The notes under the pieces are model-generated. The model had not been told where the DNA came from. It saw only the letters and a program-made list of their open reading frames with translations, and did not search any database. From Escherichia coli (GTDB lineage Bacteria; Pseudomonadota; Gammaproteobacteria; Enterobacterales; Enterobacteriaceae), in the NCBI RefSeq assembly GCF_003334255.1, contig NZ_QOWU01000083.1: DNA of 11,380 bases; one strand, 5' to 3'. The translations under genes were made by a program, and so were the position numbers. Within the stretch, counting starts at the first letter, position 1. Each line of letters opens with the position of its first letter. Shown piece by piece: positions 576 through 11,380 of the stretch.

Positions 576-1278
576 TTACTTAAGCACTATGAAGGTATCA
601 TACACCTTCATAGTGTACTTTTTTACTGCGCTTTGGGGCTAAATTGTTTTTGTGAATAGCCAGAATATCGTGGCTACGGCGGCAATGGAAATATATGATC
701 TCTGCTGCCAGAGACTGGAGATGTAATTGGGGGCAGTTTGGATATCGAAAATTATTGTACTATAAGGGGTCCGCTTGAGGGGGCCGCTTGGAAAACGGAA
801 ATTTTCCCACGCTAAGAGAATTGAGTTGAACGAGTGGTTACATCTAGGCCAGCTAACTCACTGAACGTAAAGGCTGTACGAAATGTTCCGACCGTCCGAT
901 AACCATTTGGCTTACTTCCGTACATTTCCTTGCGTAGATGTACAGAATTGTACGATTTCGGACACCAAAACTGCTGTTGTCCCGGTGCATGAAGCTACTT
1001 TCCGGGTTGGTGGTACTGACTTTGGTGTTCTTAACGACGACGTTTTCAACTCTGAAAATCGCCTCTCTGCACGGGGATTTTTACCCCCCCATAGAGCCGT
1101 CATATAAATTCAAATTATTAACTTTGATGGTAGAATTATCTTAGGTTTGATAAAATTTTGAGCCGTCGCCGTTTACTTCACAGGATTCAATATAATGGCT
1201 AAATATACAGTTTGTGATTACCAATAAACTATTAGAAATAATGGGAATGGTTGTGCCAATCTCTATCTGGAGGTCTTA

Positions 1279-1500
1279 TTGCAGGGAACATCCACCCCAT
1301 CGTTACACCAATACAGAATTGCCCCCGATACAAGACATCCAGACATTAACCTAATAAAAGCGCACCTTGACGAGGGCTTTCAGCAGGCAAAGTCTGAGGG
1401 ATTAAAAGTAGAGATTTCAGATTATAAAGAACGTCTTTACCTGTACATTAGAACACCTGGTAATAACCTAATGCAATATTCTGGTTGCAGAGAAAAATAA
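1279..1500 (+). CDS. Hypothetical small ORF (73 aa, TTG start); weak resemblance to integrase N-terminal arm-type segment; possibly a remnant
   Basis: ORF track only; TTG start, no convincing RBS. Segment ...SDYKERLYLYIRTPGN... loosely resembles the D-G-x-GLYLxVxPxGxK motif of P4-type integrase N-termini. Speculative. Confidence 0.2.
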   Translation: MQGTSTPSLHQYRIAPDTRHPDINLIKAHLDEGFQQAKSEGLKVEISDYKERLYLYIRTPGNNLMQYSGCREK

Positions 1501-1607
1501 TACAGTCGCGCTGGATACGCTGACATTGACGCAGTTATATGATTTTCTGGCGTTGGTCAGTAAACCAGCTGCAGCCAAAACGGTGTAGTCCCTGACACAG
1601 GCGCCGG

Positions 1608-1844
1608 TCATTCTGTTAACTCATCCACGTATGGGATGAACAGTTGTTTCAGTTTGAAACCAGGGATGTCAGACGGATTTTTGCTGGCGAGTACGAAATC
1701 CGTTACGAACTTAATGGCCAGACTATTTATGTATTGCGCCTGTGACACACACGAGAAAACAGGTAGATTGTGTGTGAGGGCAACTTTAACATAGCCTGCA
1801 GGTGTTAATTCAGGAGCATTGTTATCAGACCAAATATTTTTCAT
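1608..1844 (-). CDS. Hypothetical protein (78 aa)
   Basis: ATG-initiated ORF on the minus strand in AT-rich DNA; weak RBS; divergent from the 1873-2154 ORF. No recognisable family. Confidence 0.3.
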
Positions 1845-1872
1845 TCCATTAAATAGTCTTGTAGGGGATAAA

Positions 1873-2154
1873 ATGAATTACGATGAAATAACGAAAATCA
1901 CTGCAGAACGTATTAGCGACTACATGACTGAAGCGGTTAATACAGACTCTAAATCTGTTGCGGAAATGTTTCATAACGCTGCATGGGGAGTGCTATCATT
2001 GTGGTTTGAACTCGTCACAAAAATAGATCTGGATATACATAAAAAGAACAGGTATGCAAGTTATGATTTTAGAAGAAAAATCGAAATGCAGCATGAAGAG
2101 TTTCAGAAAATGACAGAGCGTGAGCAAGTGCCTTTATTGAAATTGCCTGAATAA
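1873..2154 (+). CDS. Hypothetical protein (93 aa from ATG 1873; ORF track gives a TTG start at 1819)
   Basis: ATG at 1873 preceded by AGGGGA (about 1863-1868) at reasonable spacing; ORF ends TAA 2152-2154; followed by a strong hairpin at 2220-2266. No recognisable family. Confidence 0.4.
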
Positions 2155-2219
2155 CAGAGACAGTGCAAACGATTATTTCATAATAACGATTATGTAATGA
2201 CTGGTAAGAAAATAACTTG

Positions 2220-2266
2220 ATTGAGTTCCCTTTATCCAGCCTGATAGTGGATAAAGGGAACTCAAT
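2220..2266. terminator. Perfect 18-19 bp inverted repeat hairpin between convergent genes; likely bidirectional intrinsic terminator
   Basis: TTGAGTTCCCTTTATCCA (2221-2238) / loop GCCTGATAG / TGGATAAAGGGAACTCAA (2248-2265), exact reverse complements. Flanked by A/T-rich sequence on both sides. Lies between the stop of the + ORF (2154) and the stop of parR (2277, minus). Confidence 0.55.
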
Positions 2267-2276
2267 AATAATTGAA

Positions 2277-2630
2277 TTAATTTATTAGCTTCATCGCATT
2301 TTTTTTGGTCTCTTCATCACTTTTTTGCTCTTGTTGTGAAGAGGATTGAGTGACTATTGAAGAATTAAAATCGGCCATCTCTTTTGGAAATAGCGATCTC
2401 AATATATTCACGATATCTGAAAATGTGGTTTCTTTCGTCAGCAGCTCACATAAAAGGAAAGGGGTCCGGGGATCTTGTCTGTATAAGGCCAGACCTGCCG
2501 TCAGTGCGGCCCGGTTAAGGCGGCTTCGTTCCCCTTGCGGGATACTGTCCAGTGTATCACAAACAATTTTATCTGTTTGATTTACATCTGGATTTAGTTT
2601 GAAGGCAATGGTTCTGCGCTTGTCCATCAT
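2277..2630 (-). CDS. parR: ParR (StbB) centromere-binding adaptor protein of type II (actin-like) partition system
   Basis: 117-aa translation [54 protein letters not shown]... matches my recollection of plasmid R1 ParR. Lies immediately downstream of parM with a TAATG stop/start overlap, the known parMR operon arrangement. Confidence 0.9.
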   Translation of the reverse strand: MMDKRRTIAFKLNPDVNQTDKIVCDTLDSIPQGERSRLNRAALTAGLALYRQDPRTPFLLCELLTKETTFSDIVNILRSLFPKEMADFNSSIVTQSSSQQEQKSDEETKKNAMKLIN

Positions 2631-3592
2631 TAATTACCTATGAGATACATACCGTTAACTAAATCATATTGAGAGTTATTGGTTTTGAAAAAACGTTCAT
2701 CACGAATCTGTGTGTGTTTTTTTACTGCATCGCATATTAATTCTGCGCCACCGCCTATAACCATAACATGAGTATAACCAGAAAATTCATTGAGCGTATT
2801 TAATACACGTTGCTCAAGTTTACGAAGTGCTTCATTCATTGCTTCGGTGACTATTGATATTTTGTTCTCATCATTAATTCGTTGCTTCAGATAGTTATTA
2901 TCTTTTCTGTGAATGATTATATCGTCAGCAAGATAGCTACTTCCTTTTGTTCTCGCAAGAGAAAGGGCATCTTTTACTGCAGATGTAACCAGAGAGACAC
3001 CAAGAGATGAGTCTCCGTATATTTTACTGATCCCCGATAATTTCCCCATTACCTGAGAAATATCTAATGTGGTGCCCCCGAGATCTATAATTAATAAAGA
3101 ATCTAACTCATCCAGTTCTTGTAGAACTTCATAACCTGCCGGTATAGATTCAGGCATGACTTTTACATCTTTTATTGTGAATGTATCCCCGCCATTTAAT
3201 GTAATTTTTTTCCGGAAGTTTGCTTTCTTACGCTCAATATTTTCCGTATTGGGTTGGTTATTTCTGTCGTAATACTCTGTCAGAGGAAGTGTGCAAACAA
3301 TATCCACTTCGCTTACCGGCAGACCACTGGTCAGTAAGGCGTGATGCACTGCAACGACATTAACGTCGCTGTATTGCCATGCGATATTGGTTGTGACTAC
3401 AGCATCCGGGCTGATTGGATCAAATGAATACTGTTCGCCGTTCAGTGTGTAGTTAAAGACCTTTTTATCACCAAAAGAGACTGCCCACTCGCGTTTGAAG
3501 CTGTTCGGGCTAATGTGCTGTTTAATTGTTCCGTCGCTTTCCTGCCACTGTAGTTTGATGTTTGTTGAACCGTCATCAATGAATACCAACAT
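2630..3592 (-). CDS. parM: ParM (StbA) actin-like plasmid segregation ATPase
   Basis: 320-aa translation [22 protein letters not shown]...[14 protein letters not shown]...[11 protein letters not shown]... carries actin-fold phosphate-binding motifs (DDGSTN, DLGGTT, GGGA) and matches R1 ParM as I recall it. RBS AAGGAG lies upstream of the ATG at 3590-3592. Confidence 0.95.
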
Positions 3593-3607
3593 TTATAAAA
3601 CTCCTTA

Positions 3608-3772
3608 TGGTGTTTTTTTGGTGTGTGTTTGGGTATGTTTTGGGTTTTAAGTGGGTTTGTTTGTCAAGTTTACCCCATTTCAACCATCAATCAATGATTA
3701 TTTGTCTTGTTTTGGTGTTTTATTGGGTTGGGTATGGGTTGTTTTTGGGTTTTGTTTGGCGGGTAACAAAAG
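3608..3772 (-). promoter_or_regulatory. parC: parC centromere/promoter region: two blocks of about five 11-bp iterons flanking the parMR promoter
   Basis: 11-bp periodic T/G-rich repeats on the + strand (for example ttgggtatgtt, ttgggttttaa, gtgggtttgtt, then after a ~45-bp spacer ttgttttggtg, ttttattgggt, tgggtatgggt, tgtttttgggt, tttgtttggcg). The spacer, read on the minus strand, contains TTGATT-16 bp-TAAACT and TTGACA. Architecture matches established R1 parC (10 iterons around the promoter). Confidence 0.7.
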
Positions 3773-4108
3773 ATGTCGCCGGGCTCCTCTTTTTACTGCG
3801 CCGGCTGACGCGGCGCGGCAGGAACGCTGCCTGTGGTCAGTGTCCCGCGTCCGGCCGGGCACGGGACGGGCGCTTTTACCGCTCCCGGCTGGCGTTGGTG
3901 ACAGTGTACGCCAGCCCGTCGCCCTTTTCTGATGAACGCCCTTCAAGCCGCTTTCGCGGCATATCCTCGCCGTCAAAAAGACGACGGCTGCGGTATTCCA
4001 CGGTCGGCCTGACCCGTTACCGGACGCGGTGAACAGCCCACAGGCAGCGGGGAACGGGCACCACAGGGGTGCCCTCCCGGTGCCCTCTGTAAGAGAAGGA
4101 GTGCTGTT
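3773..4108 (+). promoter_or_regulatory. Long GC-rich untranslated leader upstream of the methyltransferase operon; candidate structured promoter/ssi-like element
   Basis: About 335 bp with no credible ORF (only overlapping R/P/G-rich frames on both strands). Shares the 13-mer TGAACAGCCCACA (4030-4042) with 8399-8411. Ends with RBS AAGGAG before ATG 4109. Confidence 0.3.
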
Positions 4109-4792
4109 ATGTCCCGTTTTATCCTGGGTGACTGCGTGCGTGTTATGGCCACGTTTCCGGGCAATGCTGTCGATTTCATCCTCACCGACCCGCCGTATCT
4201 CGTCGGTTTCCGTGACCGTTCCGGGCGCACCATCGCCGGCGATAAAACCGATGAATGGCTGCAACCAGCCTGTAATGAAATGTACCGCGTACTCAAAAAA
4301 GACGCGTTAATGGTGAGCTTCTATGGCTGGAACCGCGTCGATCGCTTTATGGCCGCCTGGAAAAATGCGGGATTCAGCGTTGTTGGTCACCTGGTCTTCA
4401 CCAAAAACTACACATCGAAGGCCGCATATGTGGGCTATCGCCACGAATGTGCCTACATCCTGGCAAAAGGCCGTCCACGTCTGCCACAAAACCCGCTGCC
4501 GGACGTGCTGGGCTGGAAATATTCGGGCAATCGCCATCACCCGACGGAAAAGCCCGTTACCAGCCTGCAACCGCTGATTGAGAGCTTCACACACCCGAAC
4601 GCAATTGTGCTGGACCCGTTTGCAGGCAGCGGCTCAACCTGCGTCGCCGCCCTCCAGTCCGGACGCCGGTATATCGGTATCGAGCTGCTTGAGCAGTATC
4701 ACCGTGCCGGGCAGCAACGCCTTGCCGCCGTGCAACGGGCCATGCAGCAGGGGGCCGCGAATGATGACTGGTTTATGCCGGAGGCTGCGTAA
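4109..4792 (+). CDS. Orphan DNA methyltransferase, N6-adenine/N4-cytosine beta class (PF01555-like)
   Basis: 227 aa. Motif IV DPPY near the N-terminus (LTDPPYLVG) and motif I near the C-terminus (VLDPFAGSGSTCVAA), the order typical of beta-class amino-methyltransferases. Good RBS AAGGAG before the ATG. No adjacent restriction endonuclease candidate. Confidence 0.85.
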   Translation: MSRFILGDCVRVMATFPGNAVDFILTDPPYLVGFRDRSGRTIAGDKTDEWLQPACNEMYRVLKKDALMVSFYGWNRVDRFMAAWKNAGFSVVGHLVFTKNYTSKAAYVGYRHECAYILAKGRPRLPQNPLPDVLGWKYSGNRHHPTEKPVTSLQPLIESFTHPNAIVLDPFAGSGSTCVAALQSGRRYIGIELLEQYHRAGQQRLAAVQRAMQQGAANDDWFMPEAA

Positions 4793-5014
4793 ATGAACTA
4801 TGCAGGACACGAAAAACTGCGCGCCGAAGTGGCGGAGGTGGCCAATGCCATGTGCGACCTGCGTACAACCATGAATGAGATGGAGCAGCGGTACAGCTTT
4901 AATGCCGACACCCTGCCGGAACGTCTGGTGCGTCAGACGCTGTTTCGCGCAAACCGCCTCCTGATGGAGGCATATACCGAAATTCTGGAACTGGAAGCGT
5001 GCTTTAAAGATTGA
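4793..5014 (+). CDS. Hypothetical protein (73 aa), translationally coupled to the methyltransferase
   Basis: ATG immediately follows the methyltransferase TAA (TAAATG); GGAGG lies about 10 nt upstream; GC-rich codon usage consistent with neighbours. No recognisable family. Confidence 0.55.
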   Translation: MNYAGHEKLRAEVAEVANAMCDLRTTMNEMEQRYSFNADTLPERLVRQTLFRANRLLMEAYTEILELEACFKD

Positions 5015-5027
5015 GAAGGAGACGAGA

Positions 5028-5462
5028 ATGTACGGAACATGCGAAACGCTATGCCGGGAGCTGGCAGTAAAGTATCCGGGAGACATGCCGCTGATGCTGG
5101 TTATCTGGTCCCCGGAAGAGATTCAGGCACTGGCTGACGGTATGGAAATTTCTCTGACCGGTCATGAAATCAGGACCGTCCTGGCACGCCTGGAGGACAT
5201 CCCGGAAGACCAGCGGATTGAGTCCGGTATTTCTTCCGCTGCGGTGATGGAGATTATCCGCAACGAGAGCGAAAACCGCCTGGTGACCGTCCCTGCTGAA
5301 CTGCTGGCGTCCCTGATTCAGACCGCTGAACAGGCATTGTGGAAACGTGAATGGGCCGCCCGGGATCATGGCCTCGCCGTCCCGGAATGCGTCACCCGCC
5401 GTCAGGAGGTGGTTAATCAGGCCCGCACCCTGCTGAAAAACAACACACACGAAAACGACTGA
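5028..5462 (+). CDS. Conserved plasmid protein of unknown function (144 aa; possibly DUF1380-like), paralog of 7179-7601
   Basis: RBS GAAGGAGACGAGAATG. Aligns by eye with the 7179-7601 product (MY.T...RE...SLT..E..TV..RL.D...RxVTVPA..L). The DUF name is recalled, not verified. Confidence 0.6.
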
Positions 5463-6289
5463 TGTTATCGCCGCCTGCCCTGCGGGCGGCGATACAGGGA
5501 GAACGCTTAATCATGAACGAAAACAGCACGCTGAACGCACTGATTTGTCGTCACGCCCGCAACCTGCTGCTGGCGCAGGGCTGGCCGGAAGAGACGGATG
5601 TTGACCAGCGTAACCCGAAGTATCCGGGCTGGATCAGCATTTATGTTCTGCTGGATGCGCCCCGGCTGGCGACGTTACTTATCAACCGTCACGGCGGCGT
5701 ACTGCCGCCGCTCCTGGCCTCCGCCATTCAGAAACTGACCGGAACCGGGGCGGAACTGGTACTGTCCGGCAGTCAGTGGCAGTCGCTGCCGGTACTTCCG
5801 GCAGACGGAACGCAGGTGTCTTTCCCGTATGCCGGAGAATGGCTGACCGAAGACGAAATCAGGGCTGTACTTGCGGCGGTGCGCGATGCGGTACGCAGTG
5901 TCAGTTGCCGGGTGGCAGAAGATGCGCGGCGTATCCGGGCGGCGCTGACCACCACCGGTCAGACGTTGCTGACTCGCCAGACGCGCCGCTTTCGTCTGGT
6001 TGTGAAGGAAAGCGATCACCCCTGCTGGCTCGATGAAGATGACGAAAACCTGCCCGTGGTGCTCGATGCCATCGTGAACCGGGGAGCACGTTTTTCGTCG
6101 GTGGAAATGTACCTGGTCAGCGATTGTATTGAGCATATCCTGTCCAGTGGGCTGGCCTGCGATGTGCTGCGTATACCGGATGAACCGCCCCGCCGCTGGT
6201 TTGACCGTGGTGTTCTGCGGGAGGTGGTCCGGGAAGCCCGGGCCGAAATCCGCAGCATGGCGGATGCCCTGGCAAAAATCCGGAAATGA
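5462..6289 (+). CDS. Hypothetical protein (275 aa; alternative start ATG 5513 giving 258 aa)
   Basis: ATG 5462 overlaps the upstream stop (TGATG). An internal ATG at 5513 has its own RBS (AGGGAGA). Long GC-rich ORF co-oriented with neighbours. No recognisable motif. Confidence 0.6.
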
Positions 6290-6706
6290 TGACGTTGGCG
6301 GGGTAAATCCCCGCCTTTTTCCTGCCGGTCCCCGGACAGAGCACAAAGGAAGTCGCCGCCGGCTCCGCTTTACCCGGCCATGCAGGGCATGGCCTTGTGG
6401 TTTTTCAGTTATGTGGCCTCAGCGTCGTGTGCGGGCTGTGCCGTGCCTCCATCTTAGCCGGGCTGGCAGGGATGCAAGGGTACGCTTCGCCGCTGCGGTC
6501 ACCCGGTCCCTCCTTCCCGTCTGCCGTGATTTTCCGGTCGTTCACCCGCTCAGATTTCGCGGTCTCACCCTCCAACTCCCGCCAGCCGTGTGCGTCAGGC
6601 TGCGGCTTCCCTTGCGCCCTGTGCATCCCCGCCTTATCGCCCGGCTTTTATGGAGGCACGGCACCGCCCGGTGTCGCGGAATATGTGAACAACGGAGGAA
6701 AACATC
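6290..6706 (+). promoter_or_regulatory. GC-rich about 415-bp untranslated region upstream of klcA; candidate structured promoter/ssi-like element
   Basis: No credible ORF (the 6129-6734 and 6397-6741 frames are R/C/W/P-rich and overlap). Ends with TGAACAACGGAGGAAAACATCATG (RBS GGAGGA before klcA ATG 6707). Confidence 0.3.
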
Positions 6707-7132
6707 ATGCAATATGCGAAACCTGTCACTCTGAACGTTGAAGAGTGCGACCGTCTCTCCTTTCTACCGTATCTGTTTGGCAACGATTTTCTGTATGCCG
6801 AGGCGTATGTGTACGCGCTGGCGCAAAAAATGATGCCGGAATATCAGGGAGGCTTCTGGCACTTCATCCGCCTGCCGGACGGTGGCGGTTACATGATGCC
6901 GGATGGCGACCGTTTCCACATGGTGAACGGTGCAAACTGGTTTGACCGTACCGTGAGTGCTGATGCCGCAGGCATCATTCTGACTTCCCTTGTGATTAAC
7001 CGCCAGTTGTGGCTGTACCACGACAGCGGGGATGCAGGACTGACCCAGCTTTACCGGATGCGCGATGCGCAGTTGTGGCGTCACATCGAATTTCACCCCG
7101 AATGCAACGCGATTTACGCGGCACTGGACTGA
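6707..7132 (+). CDS. klcA: KlcA/ArdB-family antirestriction protein
   Basis: 141 aa; ...[68 protein letters not shown]... matches my recollection of KlcA/ArdB (Antirestrict family) proteins on IncF/IncP/IncN plasmids. RBS GGAGGA 7 nt upstream. Confidence 0.85.
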
Positions 7133-7141
7133 TTAACGGAC

Positions 7142-7160
7142 GGGGCGGCAATGCCGCCCC
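7142..7160. other. Intercistronic GC hairpin (GGGGCGGC-AAT-GCCGCCCC) directly upstream of an RBS
   Basis: Perfect 8-bp GC stem with 3-nt loop, 10 nt after the klcA stop and immediately before AAAGGAGACGAGAACATG. No downstream T-run, so not a canonical intrinsic terminator. Confidence 0.5.
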
Positions 7161-7178
7161 TGTAAAGGAGACGAGAAC

Positions 7179-7601
7179 ATGTACTGTACTGTTAAAGAAA
7201 TTATCCGCGAAGTGCTGAACACAGACGTGCCGGACAGTGAATGCGTTTTTGCCGTGGTGCTGACCCGTGGGGATGTGCGTCACATAGCCCAGGACTGGAG
7301 TCTGACAGACGATGAGCTGGAAACCGTCATGCAGCGACTGGACGATGCCTTTGCGCATGGTGCGGATGTCAGCATTGTTCACGACGTTGTTCGTGAGCTG
7401 ATGGAAGAAAAGCGCGCCAGCCGTCAGGTGACAGTTCCGGCGGTGATGCTGGAAAAAGTGATGGCGCTGGCAGGCAGTGAAATGAAGCGCCTGTATGCCG
7501 TCGGGAGCGAGAACGGGGGCGACGGTGACGCATTCGTCAGGGAAGAACGCGAAGCAATGGACGTTGTGTTACAGGCGCTGGACGGGGAGCACATGTCATG
7601 A
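7179..7601 (+). CDS. Conserved plasmid protein of unknown function (140 aa; possibly DUF1380-like), paralog of 5028-5462
   Basis: RBS AAAGGAGACGAGAACATG nearly identical to that of 5028. Sequence similarity to the 5028 product along the whole length, including the shared VTVPA motif. Confidence 0.6.
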   Translation: MYCTVKEIIREVLNTDVPDSECVFAVVLTRGDVRHIAQDWSLTDDELETVMQRLDDAFAHGADVSIVHDVVRELMEEKRASRQVTVPAVMLEKVMALAGSEMKRLYAVGSENGGDGDAFVREEREAMDVVLQALDGEHMS

Positions 7602-7789
7602 ATATCAGCACAGAAACCCGCGAAATTCTGCGCAATTACAAAGCCGTGATTAATGCGCGGCGTCGTGAAATGGGGCAGAAACCGCTCACCACTGCGCAGA
7701 TTGTTGATGAAATCTGCGATTTTGTGGCGAATCAGCAGGCTGTATTCCTCGGCGGTCACTACATCCTTCAGGGCAGCATAAACAGGTGA
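7598..7789 (+). CDS. Hypothetical small protein (63 aa), translationally coupled (ATGA overlap)
   Basis: ATG 7598 overlaps the TGA of the upstream gene; co-oriented; no recognisable family. Confidence 0.45.
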   Translation: MNISTETREILRNYKAVINARRREMGQKPLTTAQIVDEICDFVANQQAVFLGGHYILQGSINR

Positions 7790-7957
7790 TACAGGGGCAG
7801 GCGGTGGAGGCCGCCTGTCAGCCCGCGCGAAAACCCCTGGCAGGCTGACGCCTGCCGGAAGGGAAGCGGGCCACGCTGGCGCGTCGCCCGTTACCCTTCC
7901 CGTCTGTGATGTGTCTGACTCAGGAGTGTTTCTTTCTTATGTTATGGAACTGTTCCT

Positions 7958-8058
7958 GATGTTGTTGTTCCTTTATCTACTGCTCTGATTCTGACTACTG
8001 CAGTGTTGTTCTGTCTGCCGGGCGCACCTTCGGCTCCCGGCTGCCTGGCGGCATCCGG
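7958..8058. repeat. Copy 1 of a repeated leading-region element (77-bp core with 1 mismatch to copy 2)
   Basis: Core 7982-8058 (GCTCTGATTCTGACTACTGCAGTGTTGTTCTGTCTGCCGGGCGCACCTTCGGCTCCCGGCTGCCTGGCGGCATCCGG) matches 11304-11380 with a single T/C difference. The upstream GATGTTGTTGTTCC (7958-7971) is also shared with 11247-11260. Confidence 0.6.
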
Positions 8059-8409
8059 TCGTCAGGCCCGACTCCGACAGGCAGCTGCTGGCGCACCTGC
8101 CAGTCTCCGCCGAACCCGCTGGCGCGGTTTCGGGCTGCCGCTACGGTCCGATGCGTGAAAACCCCTGGCTTGCAGCGACCGTTCCGGTCGCGCCGCCTCT
8201 GTCGCGCCGTGGCCTGCGCTCCCGGCATCCCGGCAAAAGGCCGCCGGGATGTAAGGGGCAACGCCGTTTCGCGCACGCGCTCTCCGTCGTTGCGGCGGGC
8301 CCCTGCTCATTGCCTGCCGGGTGCCACACACCCGTATGAGTCCCTGTCGCCGGGGGCTGATACAGCCACAACCTGCCGCACTGACTGTCCAGGGTAAATG
8401 AACAGCCCA

Positions 8410-8445
8410 CAAAATTTTTTACCCAAAACCCGGTAAAAAATTTTG
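8410..8445. repeat. Perfect 14-bp inverted repeat (CAAAATTTTTTACC / GGTAAAAAATTTTG) with 8-nt loop
   Basis: 8410-8423 and 8432-8445 are exact reverse complements; an AT-rich stem embedded in GC-rich DNA, immediately after the shared 13-mer TGAACAGCCCACA. Confidence 0.5.
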
Positions 8446-8729
8446 CGTTCTGCCCAGGACAGGTGCGTCAGGCCGTGGCAGTGATGCCCCTTGCGGCGAA
8501 GGTTCTCAAACGGGTGAAGTTCATACCACAGTGAATACAGCAGCAGGTTCCCGCGAAACGTCAAAACCGCGGCTCCCGAAACTCAACGGGTGATGTTCTT
8601 TAAAAATCAGGATTTATTTCAGGCTCCGGCAATACGCATTTATTTGTTCTGTCAGTCATCCGGCTGACAGGTAATGAGAACGCAGGAACAGAAGGAGGAA
8701 AACACCGGAAAGCGTCAGATGCAGATATG

Positions 8730-8753
8730 AAAAAAGCAGGTCAGGCACCTGCT
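8730..8753 (-). terminator. Terminator-like hairpin oriented for the minus strand (stem AGCAGGT/ACCTGCT, followed by T6 on the minus strand)
   Basis: On the + strand: AAAAAA-AGCAGGT-CAGGC-ACCTGCT. On the minus strand this is a 7-bp stem followed by TTTTTT. Located about 75 bp upstream of ATG 8827. Confidence 0.35.
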
Positions 8754-8826
8754 TAATCCACGCCGTAAGAATTGTGCGACCAATTTTGACGGCATTGTTA
8801 ACCAATTTGTCATAAGGAATCCATTT

Positions 8827-9057
8827 ATGACTGTAAGCATTGTTTCACCTTCCGCAGCGGCTGTAAAGCCCCGCCGTCATCCCCGTTTCAGACGCGAAGA
8901 CATCCCCACGCCGGAAATTGACCCCGTGTTGAAAGCCTTCGGGCGACACATAGCCCGGAGTTTTCACCGGGGGCGTGGTGTACACATCCCCGCCATGAAA
9001 AACACGGCTTTCGGGCAGGTGCTCCGCACACTCGAACTGAAACGCGCTTTTAACTGA
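8827..9057 (+). CDS. Hypothetical small basic protein (76 aa)
   Basis: ATG with AAGGA upstream; R/K/H-rich product; co-oriented and followed after 51 bp by the 453-aa gene. No recognisable family. Confidence 0.45.
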   Translation: MTVSIVSPSAAAVKPRRHPRFRREDIPTPEIDPVLKAFGRHIARSFHRGRGVHIPAMKNTAFGQVLRTLELKRAFN

Positions 9058-9065
9058 TGAGGTGA

Positions 9066-9085
9066 GCCGCCCCGCGAGGGGCGGC
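9066..9085. other. Intercistronic GC hairpin (GCCGCCCC-GCGA-GGGGCGGC) directly upstream of an RBS
   Basis: Same 8-bp stem sequence as the hairpin at 7142-7160; followed by AACAGACGGAAGGAGAACATTTTATG. Confidence 0.5.
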
Positions 9086-9108
9086 AACAGACGGAAGGAG
9101 AACATTTT

Positions 9109-10470
9109 ATGACATTAGCAGCAATCACCATGACCGCCCCGGAAGCCGCCAGCCCTGTGCAGATGTACCGCGCGACCTACTCACCGGATGACAACAAACT
9201 GCGCCTGTATGCCGTGTCACGTCTTGACCCGGAGACGTATAAAAAAGTGCATGATGCTGGTTTTCGCTGGGCACCAAAACAGGCGCTGTTTGTCGCGCCA
9301 GCCTGGACACCGGGCCGGGAAGACGTGCTCCTCTCACTTGCCGGAGAGATTGAGGATGAAGACAGCACGCTCGCTGAACGTCAGGAAGCACGGGCGGAGC
9401 GGTTTACCGGATACAGCGGAAAGCGGGCCAGTGAATCCGCACAGGCACTTGATGAAGTGGAAAGACTGGCCGCGATGATCCCGCCCGGTCAGCCCATTCT
9501 TGTGGGGCATCACAGCGAACGCCGCGCCCGTCGTGATGCGCAGCGTATTGAAAACGGCATGAAACGTGCCGTGATGCTCTTTGAACGTGCGGAATACTGG
9601 GAAGAGCGGGCGCGGTCGGCACTGCTTCACGCGAAGTATAAAGAACGTCCGGACGTTCGCTGGCGTCGTATCAAAAAAATCGAAGCTGATTTGCGCAAGG
9701 CTGAAAAGACCATCGCGCAGTCGCAGAAATATCTGACGATGTGGCGGGCTGAATCGCTGGATCTGAATATGGCAAAACTCATCAGCAGTCATGACCATAT
9801 CAGCGCCTGTTTCCCGCTGGATACGTATCCGCGCCCGGCAGAAAAAAGCCAGTATGAAGGGAGCCGGTCGTTATGGTCGGCCCTGGATGATGACATCATC
9901 ACCACGGAGCAGGCCCGCGAAATTGCGATCCGCTGTCATGAACGGCAGATTCAGCATCAGCAACGCTGGGTTAACCACTATCAGAACCGCCTGATCTATG
10001 AGCGTGCCATGCTGGACGAAAGCGGCGGCGTGGTTACCCGGACACAGGATTTTGAGCCGGGCGGACAGGTTTTCAGCCGGGGCGAGTGGCTGACCATCAT
10101 CCGCGTGAACAAAAGCAACGGGGCGGTGAGTTCAGTCACAACGCCGAATTACAGTTTTCTCGGGTACAGCGGCACGATGAAAGTGACGCCCGATCGCATC
10201 ACGGACTACAAAGCACCATCGGCAGAAGAGGCTGCCATCGCCAGCCAGGCCGCGAAGCGTCCGCCGGTAGTCAACTATCCGGGGGAAGGTTTCCGGGAAA
10301 TGACAAAGGCACAGTGGGCCGCCCTGCCCCGGGACTGTAAGGCCGTGCGCAGTGTGGCAGAAGCAGAAGACCACGGGGCATACCGCTACCGCCGCACAAT
10401 GGACAATAATTTCCGCCTGGTGAATGTGTATATCACCGACATGAAAATCACGGAAATCCCACAGAAATAA
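9109..10470 (+). CDS. Conserved plasmid protein of unknown function (453 aa; possibly the DUF3560 family, unverified)
   Basis: Strong RBS AAGGAGA; long ORF with GC-rich codon usage. Central region is highly charged (R/E/K-rich, probably helical). No catalytic motif recognised by eye. Confidence 0.7.
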   Translation: MTLAAITMTAPEAASPVQMYRATYSPDDNKLRLYAVSRLDPETYKKVHDAGFRWAPKQALFVAPAWTPGREDVLLSLAGEIEDEDSTLAERQEARAERFTGYSGKRASESAQALDEVERLAAMIPPGQPILVGHHSERRARRDAQRIENGMKRAVMLFERAEYWEERARSALLHAKYKERPDVRWRRIKKIEADLRKAEKTIAQSQKYLTMWRAESLDLNMAKLISSHDHISACFPLDTYPRPAEKSQYEGSRSLWSALDDDIITTEQAREIAIRCHERQIQHQQRWVNHYQNRLIYERAMLDESGGVVTRTQDFEPGGQVFSRGEWLTIIRVNKSNGAVSSVTTPNYSFLGYSGTMKVTPDRITDYKAPSAEEAAIASQAAKRPPVVNYPGEGFREMTKAQWAALPRDCKAVRSVAEAEDHGAYRYRRTMDNNFRLVNVYITDMKITEIPQK

Positions 10471-10475
10471 GGTAT

Positions 10476-10501
10476 ATCCCCCCGGGAAATCCCCGGGGGA
10501 T
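10476..10501. other. Intercistronic GC stem-loop (ATCCCCC...GGGGGAT) between the 453-aa gene and the downstream methyltransferase
   Basis: 10476-10482 ATCCCCC pairs with 10495-10501 GGGGGAT; the loop contains the palindrome CCCGGG. Followed by RBS GGAGA and ATG 10517. Confidence 0.45.
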
Positions 10502-10516
10502 GACGGAGATAATGAC

Positions 10517-11080
10517 ATGCACAGTCAGTTAAGAGAACGTATCCGGCTGATGCGCGCAAGGCTGGATAACGCCGCGCCGGTTGCTGAAATCCGGGCTGAA
10601 TCTCAGCTTTTTGTGACTCCTGCCCCGGTCTGTGATCGCCTGGTGACGCTGGCGGAAATCAGCAACCGTGATCACATTCTGGAACCCTCTGCCGGCACCG
10701 GGGCCATACTGCGGGCGATTCGGGATACCGCGCCGGAGGCCATGTGTGATGCGGTGGAGATTAACAGCGGGCTGGTCCGGTATCTGCGGGAAAATTTTAA
10801 CGGTGTCAGGGTACAGTGTGGCGACTTCATGGAATGGCAGCCGGTGCAGTATTACAGCCGGATCATTATGAATCCGCCGTTCAGTCACGGGCAGGATATC
10901 CGGCATATCCTGCGGGCTTTTTCCCTGTTGCGTCCGGGGGGCGTGCTGGTTGCCGTCTGTCTCAACGGGCCGCGCCAGCAGGAGAAGCTGTTACCGTTTT
11001 CTGACGTCCGCGAGGAGCTGCCGCGCGGCACGTTTGCTTATACCGATGTCCCGACGATGATTATTCGTTTGCGTGCCTGA
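10517..11080 (+). CDS. Small class I SAM-dependent methyltransferase with amino-methyltransferase NPPF motif (putative orphan DNA or RNA methyltransferase)
   Basis: 187 aa. Motif I-like LEPSAGTGAIL followed about 55 residues later by IMNPPFS (the (D/N)PP(F/Y) motif IV), i.e. a gamma-like order. Too short for a separate target-recognition domain. RBS GGAGA 7 nt upstream. Confidence 0.75.
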   Translation: MHSQLRERIRLMRARLDNAAPVAEIRAESQLFVTPAPVCDRLVTLAEISNRDHILEPSAGTGAILRAIRDTAPEAMCDAVEINSGLVRYLRENFNGVRVQCGDFMEWQPVQYYSRIIMNPPFSHGQDIRHILRAFSLLRPGGVLVAVCLNGPRQQEKLLPFSDVREELPRGTFAYTDVPTMIIRLRA

Positions 11081-11246
11081 TGACACAGGGCTGGCGGGAG
11101 GATAAATGCCCGTCTGTCCGCACCGGGAAAAGACCGCGCGCCGGTGGCGCTGAAAGGGGCCGCGCTCACGCGCCGCCCCTTTCATTACGCGGACGTTCTG
11201 ATGGGGGCTTCTGTCTTTTCAGACCTGTCATTTGTCTGTTACTGAT

Positions 11247-11380
11247 GATGTTGTTGTTCCTGCTACTGCTACTGCTACTGCTACTGCTCTTCTTTTTCCT
11301 GCCGCTCTGATTCTGACTACTGCAGTGTTGTCCTGTCTGCCGGGCGCACCTTCGGCTCCCGGCTGCCTGGCGGCATCCGG
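11247..11380. repeat. Copy 2 of the repeated leading-region element, truncated by the window end; contains a (TGCTAC)4-5 microsatellite insertion relative to copy 1
   Basis: 11304-11380 matches 7982-8058 (76/77). Between the shared GATGTTGTTGTTCC and the core there are tandem hexamers TGCTAC x4 plus TGCTC (11261-11289) that are absent from copy 1. Confidence 0.6.

Follow-up and report, generated by a model that had tools for sequence, protein, structure and literature searches.

Promoters of the Frpo type have been known since 1997, were proven in vivo in 2023 and had thousands of homologues listed in 2024. Frpo1 of the F plasmid is reportedly the ssiD site of Masai and Arai from 1997, and the ssi1-ssi3 sites of ColIb-P9 (IncI1) are said to go back to Bates et al. 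in 1999. Frpo2 of F was described by Couturier et al. 2023, Frpo1 and Frpo2 also being called ssp1a and ssp1b; ssi1-ssi3 (Nasim et al. 2004) are class 1 of Wen et al. 2025. F Frpo1/Frpo2 and ColIb/pESBL ssi1-3 support RNA-polymerase-dependent initiation on a single-stranded, not a double-stranded, template and drive early, transient expression in transconjugants. Deletion of Frpo2 from F abolished early expression of ssb and yfjA in transconjugants (PMC9849209), and 13,089 Frpo homologues have been counted in 6,006 conjugative elements (PMC11541004). Two other groups of single-stranded DNA (ssDNA) promoters, class 2 and class 3, have been described (Wen et al. 2025; Fraikin et al. 2026), and ssp2 in F is a roadblock to complementary-strand synthesis (bioRxiv 10.64898/2026.01.09.698686). 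Folded ssDNA also recruits host enzymes at the single-strand origins (sso) of rolling-circle plasmids and at primosome and primase ssi sites, such as phiX174-type pas and G4-type G sites (PMC7690428).

Here we analysed an 11,380-nucleotide window, the whole stretch of Escherichia coli DNA on contig NZ_QOWU01000083.1 under study, in which an initial annotation had flagged positions 7958-8058 as a repeated candidate Frpo or ssi site. The locus proved to be a known system in which the flagged core was mislocated, with one unexplained flanking module in addition. At a probability of about 90%, the repeat containing the core is one unit of the class 1 ssDNA promoter family (Frpo/ssiD, ssi1-3, 'ssp1').

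The window represents the distal leading region of an IncF plasmid resembling R100. Plasmid NZ_CP024281 is 99.94% identical to window 715-11380 and carries, all on the plus strand, parM, the window genes, ssb, psiB, hok, oriT and traM in that order. A sequence on its minus strand at 23770-23786, which we take to be the nic site as in F oriT, identifies the minus strand as the transferred (T) strand, as the initial annotation had proposed. The repeat belongs to the leading region, and the co-oriented genes downstream of it have the T strand as their template. Copy 1 is preceded by an operon running from a klcA/ardB-like gene to an ORF at 7598-7789 and followed by one that is absent from F according to the F annotation; our literature search found no report of zygotic induction for the latter. 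F ssiE (D90180) was considered as the identity of the window element and rejected: it matched solely NZ_CP024281 22994-23182, near oriT and outside the window, and no D90180 homology was found within the window. The genes and hairpins surrounding the repeat are as follows.

3825-4049, class 3 (ssp3) hairpin
6432-6670, class 2 (ssp2, 'Frpo3') hairpin
8827-11080, plus strand, operon 3' of copy 1, from the ORF list and the NZ_CP024281 annotation
8827-9057, plus strand, 76-aa ORF, the first of the copy 1 operon
9109-10470, plus strand, DUF3560 protein of the copy 1 operon
10517-11080, plus strand, class I SAM-dependent methyltransferase of the copy 1 operon

The 77-nt cores at 7982-8058 and 11304-11380 carried a single difference (8010, T/C), in agreement with the initial annotation. 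Over the full spans, 7958-8058 and 11280-11380, 11 of 101 positions were mismatched, and a repeat finder paired 7949-8058 with 11271-11380 at 88% identity. Both copies begin long stretches without annotated genes, that of copy 1 being 7790-8826. The expectation that the element was longer than the window shows was also borne out: in NZ_CP024281 a repeat of ~640 bp occurs three times (12250-12896, 15578-16235 and 20994-21631; 91-99% pairwise identity), and every copy precedes an operon of the leading region. The first of these corresponds to window 7949-8595 (copy 1), and the window holds this one whole unit together with 110 nt from the beginning of another (11271-11380). Homology between copies sets in at 7949 relative to copy 2 and at 7965 relative to copy 3, and is near-exact from 7982. 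The second copy had been placed from 11247, which did not hold: register-true homology starts at ~11271-11291, and 11260-11288 is a (CTGCTA)4.8 microsatellite at the copy 2 start. At least 5000 plasmids match the repeat, most of the matches listed having three places per record. The flagged core is the outer edge of this repeat, with the promoter hairpin ~300 bases further on. The parts of the repeat are given below.

7925-8017, no strand assigned, AT-rich tract (38.7% GC; 66.7% pyrimidine on the plus strand)
8017-8041, minus strand, terminal hairpin of module U1 (its 3'-terminal block), 5'-GCCGGG AGCCGAAGGTGCG CCCGGC-3'
8018-8158, minus strand, module U1 type A, multi-hairpin, 73% GC (nhmmer profile match 8158-8025, E 3e-31)
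8159-8255, minus strand, module U2, shared with F Frpo1/Frpo2 and partly with ColIb ssi
8252-8584, minus strand, homologue of F ssiD/Frpo (GenBank D90178) found by BLAST, class 1 ssDNA promoter unit
8330-8516, minus strand, main imperfect T-strand hairpin of 70 pairs and 187 nt, from the inverted repeat and DNA fold
8384-8423, minus strand, candidate promoter block in the loop-proximal 3' arm, conserved in homologues
8517-8595, plus strand, conserved 3' end of the repeat and presumed transcribed leader, from alignment and segment identities
11271-11380, minus strand, first part of repeat copy 2, truncated where the window stops (partial U1 profile match 11379-11347)

We compared the locus with five Frpo/ssi references from the literature. 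F ssiD, in the published version of Samuel 2024 (Supplementary Table 2), aligned with 8584-8252 at 77.9% over 340 nt (E 9e-69), and ColIb ssi2/ssi3 were 78-80% identical to the hairpin tip; none of the five references matched 7958-8058. The proposal of a Frpo or ssi site was thus right for the locus and the system, where an ssiD homologue occupies 8252-8584, and wrong for the flagged coordinates. Stable secondary structure on the minus strand, which the initial annotation had anticipated, was found at 8240-8600 (-98 kcal/mol, z -6.1). Within it, the hairpin at 8330-8516 folded as DNA at -63.8 kcal/mol on the T strand versus -56.0 kcal/mol on the complement. It has its loop at 8424-8431, an A/T-rich tip at 8403-8452 and, in the 3' arm, an 8-nt bulge (GTTCATTT, 8396-8403). 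The sequence is identical to the F Frpo2 hairpin at 183 of 186 positions (98.4%), and 8 of 23 consensus pairs showed compensatory changes among 11 homologues from F, ColIb, Serratia, an insect metagenome and Salmonella. This predicted 187-nt hairpin is the structure that fits the published Frpo description.

The candidate promoter block reads GGTAAAAAATTTT (UP-like), TTGTGG (8412-8407), the bulge and CCCTGGAC(AGT) (8394-8384). The succession of AAAAAATTTTGTGG, 8-nt bulge and CCCTGGAC is conserved in the F, ColIb, Serratia and Salmonella homologues. The -35 and -10 hexamers may lie in this block at 8384-8423, to judge from the sequence, which they match weakly; the 5' arm of the hairpin contains TTGAGA-N17-CATCAC. 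A strict sigma-70 consensus scan of both strands of 7790-8830 found no promoter-like site, and a terminator scan of the same interval found only one, on the minus strand at 8754-8734, outside the repeat. Rfam returned nothing at the gathering threshold for the whole window, and relaxing to E values up to 10 gave chance-level matches over the repeat.

F Frpo1 and Frpo2 resemble the repeat in leading-region position, orientation, a long imperfect T-strand hairpin and a 3' leader, and Frpo2 lies upstream of ssb exactly as copy 2 does in NZ_CP024281, directly upstream of that gene. F has two copies, whereas the plasmid studied here has three, and the complete copy in the window heads the operon of 76-aa ORF, DUF3560 and methyltransferase genes that F lacks. 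F Frpo2 is a chimera that follows copy 1 up to ~8491 and copy 2 from ~8512, with the intervening operon gone; it appears to be the recombinant left by deletion of the copy 1 operon. The three-copy arrangement and the chimeric Frpo2 together explain the loss of this leading-region operon from F. The promoter-distal 130-200 nt, which include the flagged core, bear no relation to what F has at that position. ColIb-P9 ssi1-3 are likewise three dispersed leading-region repeats, each heading an operon, and share with the present repeat the hairpin tip (78-80%) and the 3' block GGGAGCGC..GGCGCGAC, but their stem sequences have diverged (hairpin identity ~61%). The ssi fragments as published (329 nt) end at the equivalent of window position 8199, so that U1 and the flagged core were excluded from them. 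Class 2 and class 3 promoters also rely on a T-strand hairpin that precedes a leading-region operon, but have no sequence similarity to the repeat and no adjoining U1.

Given the 98% identity between its hairpin and that of F Frpo2, copy 1 would be expected to have single-strand-specific promoter activity. The steps of the mechanism that follows are drawn from the literature on homologues. During conjugation, the minus strand would arrive single-stranded in the recipient, where the inverted repeat at 8330-8516 would fold into a long imperfect hairpin presenting duplex promoter elements. Host sigma-70 RNA polymerase would start on this hairpin and read rightward with the T strand as template, so that copy 1 would drive expression of the 76-aa ORF and of the DUF3560 and methyltransferase genes, and copy 2 that of ssb through psiB. 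The transcript may also prime complementary-strand synthesis. Conversion to duplex would then abolish the hairpin and silence the promoter.

The flagged 77-nt core is made up of a purine-rich T-strand tract and the terminal hairpin of a separate module, U1, and lies ~200 nt outside the ssiD/Frpo homologue unit. The T strand is purine-rich over 7925-8017 because the plus strand is pyrimidine-rich there. U1 lies 3' of the main hairpin on the T strand, which in terms of transcription puts it on the upstream side of the promoter. The loop motif of its terminal hairpin, GGGAGCCGAAGG, is kept across genera, and the stem flanking it is variable; the corresponding hairpin of copy 2 is at ~11339-11363. 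Between U1 and the promoter unit, U2 contributes the hairpins CGACCGGAACGGTCG (8176-8190) and ATCCCGGC...GCCGGGAT (8227-8250). The identity of U2 to F, as well as to copies 2 and 3, is 94-96%, and the 3' end of ColIb ssi3 aligns within it at 8199-8227.

U1 is found alongside class 1 promoters in IncF and IncI plasmids and apparently in those of other enterobacteria, and its conservation between IncF and IncI far exceeds that of the promoter hairpin. Against the IncI-gamma/K plasmid NZ_CP065122, 125 of 126 positions of 8025-8150 were identical (99%), beside a hairpin of merely ~61% identity and unrelated flanks. At least 5000 plasmids carry U1 at 95% identity or more, and it was also found in plasmid-like contigs of Citrobacter, Enterobacter, Ca. 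Erwinia, Franconibacter, Superficieibacter and Entomohabitans. A crude test found a long unbranched hairpin next to U1 in 7 of 14 instances from these other genera, the rest having branched minimum-energy folds; the association of U1 with the hairpin is therefore only partly shown outside IncF and IncI. The consensus T-strand structure of U1 has 44 pairs and was 94.6% paired, compared with 28-48% when partners were slid, a contrast inflated by deriving the structure from the same sequences. Compensatory changes occurred at 11 pairs, a number reached by none of 500 shuffles. G-T pairs outnumbered A-C pairs by 45 to 6, in a count biased toward the strand used in prediction, and the consensus energy favoured the T strand over the complement under both RNA and DNA parameters. 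Invariant unpaired blocks lie between the variable stems. The U1 profile found one copy per class 1 repeat and none beside the class 2 and class 3 hairpins. A 25-nt similarity at 3867-3891 (family D3), near the class 3 hairpin, had been considered as a further copy of U1; the profile was negative there as well as near class 2, and we therefore treated the similarity as chance.

The position of U1 is taken in F by an unrelated sequence, 'type B', for which neither BLAST nor the profile found homology to type A. The motif GGCGGAGAC, common to both, was too short to count as evidence of homology. A search with the 77-nt core and U1 against the 18-kb F leading region gave no match (blastn-short, E 0.01), so F Frpo1 and Frpo2 lack the flagged core. 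No U1 match was found in a phage collection, and a literature search for the upstream module found no description of U1. Signals of the sso, pas and G-site kind start complementary-strand synthesis, and the ssi option of the initial annotation belongs with them. Some such sites have three or four hairpins, as does U1. For a primosome or G4-type ssi in U1, we found no relevant Rfam family and no match at threshold in 7790-8830.

That the flagged core at 7958-8058 is itself the promoter or ssi site, its GC-rich T-strand hairpins making the -35/-10 duplex, is highly improbable. The near-exact repetition speaks for it, as does a local hairpin that persists in the minus-strand centroid fold and contains the GC-rich self-complementarity noted initially, GCCGGG at 8017-8022 pairing with CCCGGC at 8036-8041. 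However, this stem comprises just 6 bp plus 2 and is without promoter-like hexamers, the core is unlike all five published Frpo/ssi sequences, the nearest match ending at 8199, and the F ssiD match and the long hairpin lie 200-300 nt away. The lack of a reference match and the absence of the core from the F leading region, where Frpo1 and Frpo2 work, largely refute this reading. A plus-sense RNA element, acting as terminator or 3'-end stabiliser of the upstream operon through, for example, a C(UUCG)G tetraloop, has a small chance of being correct. It would suit the position downstream of a gene block, the plus-strand CCUUCGG inside a GC stem and the fold of RNA 8010-8255 (-127.6 kcal/mol, z -2.8), but the hairpin has no U-tract, the scan of 7790-8830 gave no plus-strand terminator, and DNA folding reached z -2.9 on the plus strand versus -4.3 on the minus strand. 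Consensus folding also favours the T-strand sense, and the upstream genes vary among the three copies, which ties the module to the promoter rather than to an upstream gene. We give practically no credence to a small-protein gene in the repeat. Overlapping ORFs exist (plus strand 8003-8158, 51 aa; minus strand 7995-8276, 93 aa), and several records carry a 'hypothetical protein' over the repeat; against this, 73% GC yields long spurious ORFs, and the NZ_CP024281 annotation has no gene over copy 1. We rejected the coding reading because 1- and 2-nt indels in the conserved module of other genera disrupt any frame.

For U1, a functional T-strand fold in its own right, travelling with class 1 promoters and acting in the recipient while single-stranded, has a chance somewhat below even. 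Such a fold might serve for priming or protein binding, or might be a barrier that holds back complementary-strand synthesis or transcription from upstream before it reaches the promoter hairpin, and the ssp2 roadblock of F provides a precedent (bioRxiv 10.64898/2026.01.09.698686). The IncF-IncI identity beside a diverged hairpin and unrelated flanks, the spread over at least 5000 plasmids and six further genera, the compensatory pairs, the strand-favouring energy and G-T excess, the invariant unpaired blocks and the exclusive pairing with class 1 repeats all argue for function. On the other side, F functions with the unrelated 'type B', so that U1 is dispensable for promoter activity; the slid-partner contrast and the pair count carry the biases given above; recent recombination, and not constraint, could account for the near-identity of the IncF and IncI copies; and Fraikin et al. 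saw the F conversion delay at ssp2 only. With a somewhat lower probability, core and U1 would be a functionless passenger kept alike by gene conversion or recombination between Frpo repeats. Copies within one plasmid are indeed homogenised along the entire 640 bp, the repeats do recombine, as the Frpo2 chimera of F and a similar hybrid repeat in pO111-CRL115 (PMC3817090) illustrate, and F has no U1-A match. However, cross-genus retention, compensatory stem changes and invariant loop blocks would be unexpected for neutral DNA. Returning to the functional fold, we tentatively propose that U1 is a structured ssDNA module with a separate function in the recipient while the DNA is still single-stranded, and that F would have 'type B' as an alternative module at that place, although the odds are appreciably against this fuller version. 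Its roles could include, for example, shielding the promoter from early duplex formation, insulating zygotic operons or binding host or leading-region proteins; our tentative guess is a T-strand structure that delays duplex conversion of the promoter or shields it from the operon upstream.

The promoter repeat has been thoroughly catalogued before, and for it the present finding adds only the correct annotation of the window. Published Frpo/ssi definitions (~330 nt) cover just half of the repeated unit, and U1 lies in the excluded half. If U1 modulates the time for which the promoter is single-stranded, the recent 'roadblock' idea put forward for ssp2 would also hold for the promoter class found most often on resistance plasmids.

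The 3' end of the repeat runs up to the translation start signals (ribosome-binding site and ATG) of ssb in copy 2 and of a ygeA-like gene in copy 3. Unlike these copies and F, copy 1 has a 230-nt spacer between the repeat end and the first ORF. An antisense-RNA gene lies within this spacer, and the minus-strand terminator at 8754-8734 belongs to the antisense RNA. In other plasmids, a group II intron is inserted at the position equivalent to 8022 (+/-1).

The initial annotation had described a 77-bp core occurring twice with one mismatch, and comparison of 7982-8058 with 11304-11380 bore this out, the sole difference being at 8010 (T/C). Over the full span first proposed (7958-8058), the copies differed at 11 of 101 positions, and a repeat finder matched 7949-8058 to 11271-11380 at 88%. 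The second copy does run past the window end, as had been suspected: in plasmid NZ_CP024281 (L001), which matches window 715-11380 at 99.94% identity (subtracting 4301 from an L001 position gives the window position), the repeat measures about 640 bp and is present in three copies, and the window stops inside copy 2.

Copies of the ~640-bp repeat in L001
12250-12896 (window 7949-8595): copy 1
15578-16235: copy 2
20994-21631: copy 3

Copies 2 and 3 were 99.4% identical, and copy 1 showed about 91-92% identity to them. At least 5000 plasmids matched the repeat; among the matches listed, most had it at three places per record.

According to the L001 map, the window represents the distal leading region of an IncF, MOBF conjugative plasmid, in which every leading-region gene is carried by the + strand.

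Gene order in L001
Before copy 1: parM (minus strand), DNA methylase, DUF1380, antirestriction, DUF1380, 63-aa ORF
Copy 1 to copy 2: 76-aa ORF, DUF3560 gene, SAM-dependent methyltransferase gene
Copy 2 to copy 3: ssb, DUF905 gene, ParB-like gene, psiB, hok
After copy 3: ygeA-like gene, DUF932 gene, SLT gene, oriT, traM

The F nic-site sequence, GTGGGGTGTGGTGCTTT, was found on the minus strand of L001 at 23770-23786. This identifies the minus strand as the transferred (T) strand, from which the + sense genes are transcribed, in agreement with the strand assumed at the outset.

We used the F ssiD/Frpo sequence (D90178) from Supplementary Table 2 of Samuel et al. 2024 (PMC11541004) as the reference. 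It aligned to the minus strand of window 8252-8584 with 77.9% identity over 340 nt (E 9e-69) and to the other two L001 copies with 87.8%. ColIb-P9 ssi2 and ssi3 shared 78-80% identity with the centre of the unit, the 3' end of ssi3 aligning to 8199-8227. Folded as DNA, the minus strand of 8240-8600 reached -98 kcal/mol against a shuffle mean of -65 (z -6.1), and one long imperfect hairpin dominated the fold.

Elements of the hairpin
8330-8516, minus strand: main hairpin, 70 pairs in the DNA fold, A/T-rich at its tip
8424-8431, minus strand: loop
8396-8403, minus strand: 8-nt bulge

The hairpin was more stable on the T strand than on its complement (-63.8 vs -56.0 kcal/mol), as was 7940-8600 as a whole (-180 vs -163 kcal/mol). 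Across 11 homologues from F, ColIb, Serratia, an insect metagenome and Salmonella, compensated pairing, with both sides changed, was seen at 8 of the 23 consensus pairs. The copy 1 hairpin was identical to that of F Frpo2 at 183 of 186 positions, and when Frpo2 is deleted from F, transconjugants no longer express ssb and yfjA early (Couturier et al. 2023, PMC9849209). By its homology, location, strand and hairpin, the repeat belongs to the Frpo/ssi family now designated ssp1 or class 1 (Wen et al. 2025, PMC12672017; Fraikin et al. 2026); its single-strand promoter activity is predicted from homology. Given the likeness to Frpo2 and the census by Samuel et al. (13,089 homologues in 6,006 conjugative elements; PMC11541004), the locus is of a known kind, catalogued at scale.

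From the literature on homologues, the T strand would fold on entering the recipient, and host sigma-70 RNA polymerase would recognise promoter elements displayed in the stem. Transcription would proceed rightward, out of the hairpin and into the downstream operon, and the transcript might also prime complementary-strand synthesis; duplex formation would then abolish the structure and switch the promoter off. A strict sigma-70 scan of 7790-8830 on both strands returned no -35/-10 hexamers. On the 3' arm, a conserved block near the loop consists of GGTAAAAAATTTTGTGG, the bulge and then CCCTGGACAGT, within which TTGTGG plus TGGACA or GACAGT could be candidate hexamers. The 5' arm contains TTGAGA-N17-CATCAC.

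The proposal that the core marks a candidate Frpo/ssi held for the system, given the F ssiD homology at 8252-8584, but not for its coordinates. The core lies outside the promoter unit: on the T strand, about 200 nt separate it from the 3' limit of the ssiD fragment and 140 nt from that of the ColIb ssi fragments. By itself, the flagged interval matched none of the reference Frpo/ssi sequences and is very unlikely to be a promoter. Up to 8017 it is a portion of an AT-rich tract, and the remainder forms the terminal hairpin of U1 type A, a module rich in GC (8018-8158, GC 73%).

Identity of copy 1 to copy 2, F Frpo2 and F Frpo1
8018-8150: 98.5%, 44.5%, 46.3%
8151-8255: 96.2%, 95.0%, 96.1%
8330-8516 (hairpin): 96.7%, 98.4%, 78.3%

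Judged by these alignments, 44-46% identity at 8018-8150 means that F carries unrelated sequences there, and blastn-short found no matches to the core or to 8018-8150 in the 18-kb F leading region. Both F promoters function without 8018-8150, so single-strand promoter activity does not depend on this segment. The repeated unit extends over twice the length covered by the published promoter definition, and the half for which we found no description is structurally conserved across genera.

In an alignment of 13 U1 sequences, invariant blocks alternated on the T strand with variable stems.

Invariant blocks of U1, T strand
CATCRGACCSTAGCSG
GCCCGAAACC ... GTTCGGCGGAG
GGAGTSGGGC..GACGA
GGGAGCCGAAGG

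The consensus T-strand structure comprised 44 pairs with 94.6% of cells paired, and contained 11 compensatory pairs against 5.3 +/- 1.4 after shuffling (observed value reached in 0 of 500), the structure having been predicted from the very sequences used to score it. Sliding the partners by 1-3 columns left 28-48% of cells paired and 0-4 compensatory pairs. G-T pairs outnumbered A-C pairs by 45 to 6, a count biased to the strand used for prediction. The consensus fold favoured the T strand over its complement with RNA (-38.3 vs -30.8) and DNA (-15.2 vs -9.3) parameters, and z for 8010-8255 was -4.3 on the minus and -2.9 on the plus strand.

On the T strand, U1 follows the hairpin on its 3' side, which puts it upstream of the promoter, where it would meet any polymerase coming from the preceding operon. 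The only analogy for its role with experimental support is the F ssp2 hairpin, which holds up complementary-strand synthesis and thereby prolongs single-strand promoter activity (Fraikin et al. 2026). We tentatively suggest that U1 may likewise stall complementary-strand synthesis, or else that it may insulate the promoter from upstream transcription. Somewhat less probably, U1 is passenger DNA without a function of its own: the copies of the repeat have evidently been homogenised and undergo recombination. The compensatory pairing described speaks against this reading. A coding role is excluded by single-base indels within the module.

At least 5000 plasmids contained U1 at an identity of 95% or above; phage records gave no match. 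In the IncI-gamma/K plasmid NZ_CP065122, it is situated between ardA and the next operon and was identical to window 8025-8150 at 125 of 126 positions, whereas in the same pairwise alignment the hairpin shared about 61% (tip 77%) and the flanks were unrelated. A degenerate pattern derived from U1 and searched against species-representative genomes found copies in Citrobacter braakii (3), Enterobacter hormaechei (3) and Ca. Erwinia dacicola (2), with further matches in Escherichia sp., Entomohabitans, Franconibacter and Superficieibacter. It also matched a 6.5-kb contig deposited as Streptomyces morookaense, probably contamination, since the U regions of the contig and the window are identical. 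In L001, the U1 profile hit each class 1 repeat exactly once and gave no hit beside class 2 or class 3 hairpins; it gave none in F either. At the U1 place, both F Frpo copies instead have a different, type B sequence (GGGATGGAAGCCCGCCAGGG...; about 8167 and 13555 in NC_002483). In our reading of Supplementary Table 2 of Samuel et al., the GGGATGGAAGCCCGCCAGGG motif also occurs in the Salmonella candidates Frpo*6 and Frpo*7. There are two alternative upstream modules: type A in the window, IncI plasmids and several other genera, and type B at both Frpo copies of F. By the same reading of that table, one Salmonella element carries types A and B at different promoter copies.

In Klebsiella plasmid NZ_CP033962 (about 7658-9993) and in L005, U1 is interrupted in T-strand sense by a group II intron with 5' end GTGCGAC and minus-strand ltrA, exactly inside the hairpin of the initial annotation at 8022 +/-1. 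Several Klebsiella and E. coli plasmids gave 5-6 partial matches per record where the intron splits U1, and the junction recurs in the contig labelled S. morookaense.

The AT-rich tract (7925-8017, GC 38.7%) is pyrimidine-rich on the + strand, and such a tract precedes every repeat copy; F has a CTT/CCT-rich tract in the matching position. These tracts are purine-rich on the T strand and should not fold. That of copy 2 includes a perfect (CTGCTA)4.8 microsatellite at 11260-11288.

Comparing F 8210-8620 with window 7849-8660, we found Frpo2 to be a chimera: at informative sites it agrees with copy 1 as far as about 8491, and with copy 2 starting at about 8512. F lacks the operon of 76-aa ORF, DUF3560 and methyltransferase genes present here between copies 1 and 2. 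The two-promoter layout of F is therefore consistent with loss of this operon through recombination between repeats, an event with a reported parallel in IncI plasmids (PMC3817090).

Three other elements were located in the window.

6432-6670, minus strand: class 2 hairpin (ssp2/'Frpo3'), arms 6432-6463 and 6639-6670
3825-4049, minus strand: class 3 hairpin (ssp3), arms 3825-3854 and 4020-4049; z -5.1
8731-8832, minus strand: AS-pc01 homologue (Rfam RF02875, 'antisense to pHK01_035')

For the class 2 hairpin, upstream of the antirestriction gene (6707-7132), the fold of 6420-6685 reached -75.4 kcal/mol (z -6.5). The corresponding F sequence, which precedes yfgB/ardB, shares 96.8% identity with this hairpin, and the 'Frpo' 4' candidate of Samuel et al. 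shares 82%; the class 2 promoter was lately reported as a roadblock to complementary-strand synthesis (Fraikin et al. 2026). The class 3 hairpin, 97.4% identical to F, lies upstream of the DNA methylase gene 4109-4792; its counterpart is the class 3 ssDNA promoter that precedes the M.EcoGIX-like methylase gene. The AS-pc01 homologue scored 73.1 bits, slightly below the Rfam gathering score of 79 (E 7e-13, full model coverage), has a minus-strand intrinsic terminator (8754-8734) and is antisense to the start of ORF 8827-9057, in a 230-nt spacer found only at copy 1. Between parM and the methylase region, 3599-3763 consists of degenerate G/T-rich 11-nt tandem repeats (GTTTTTTTGG-like).
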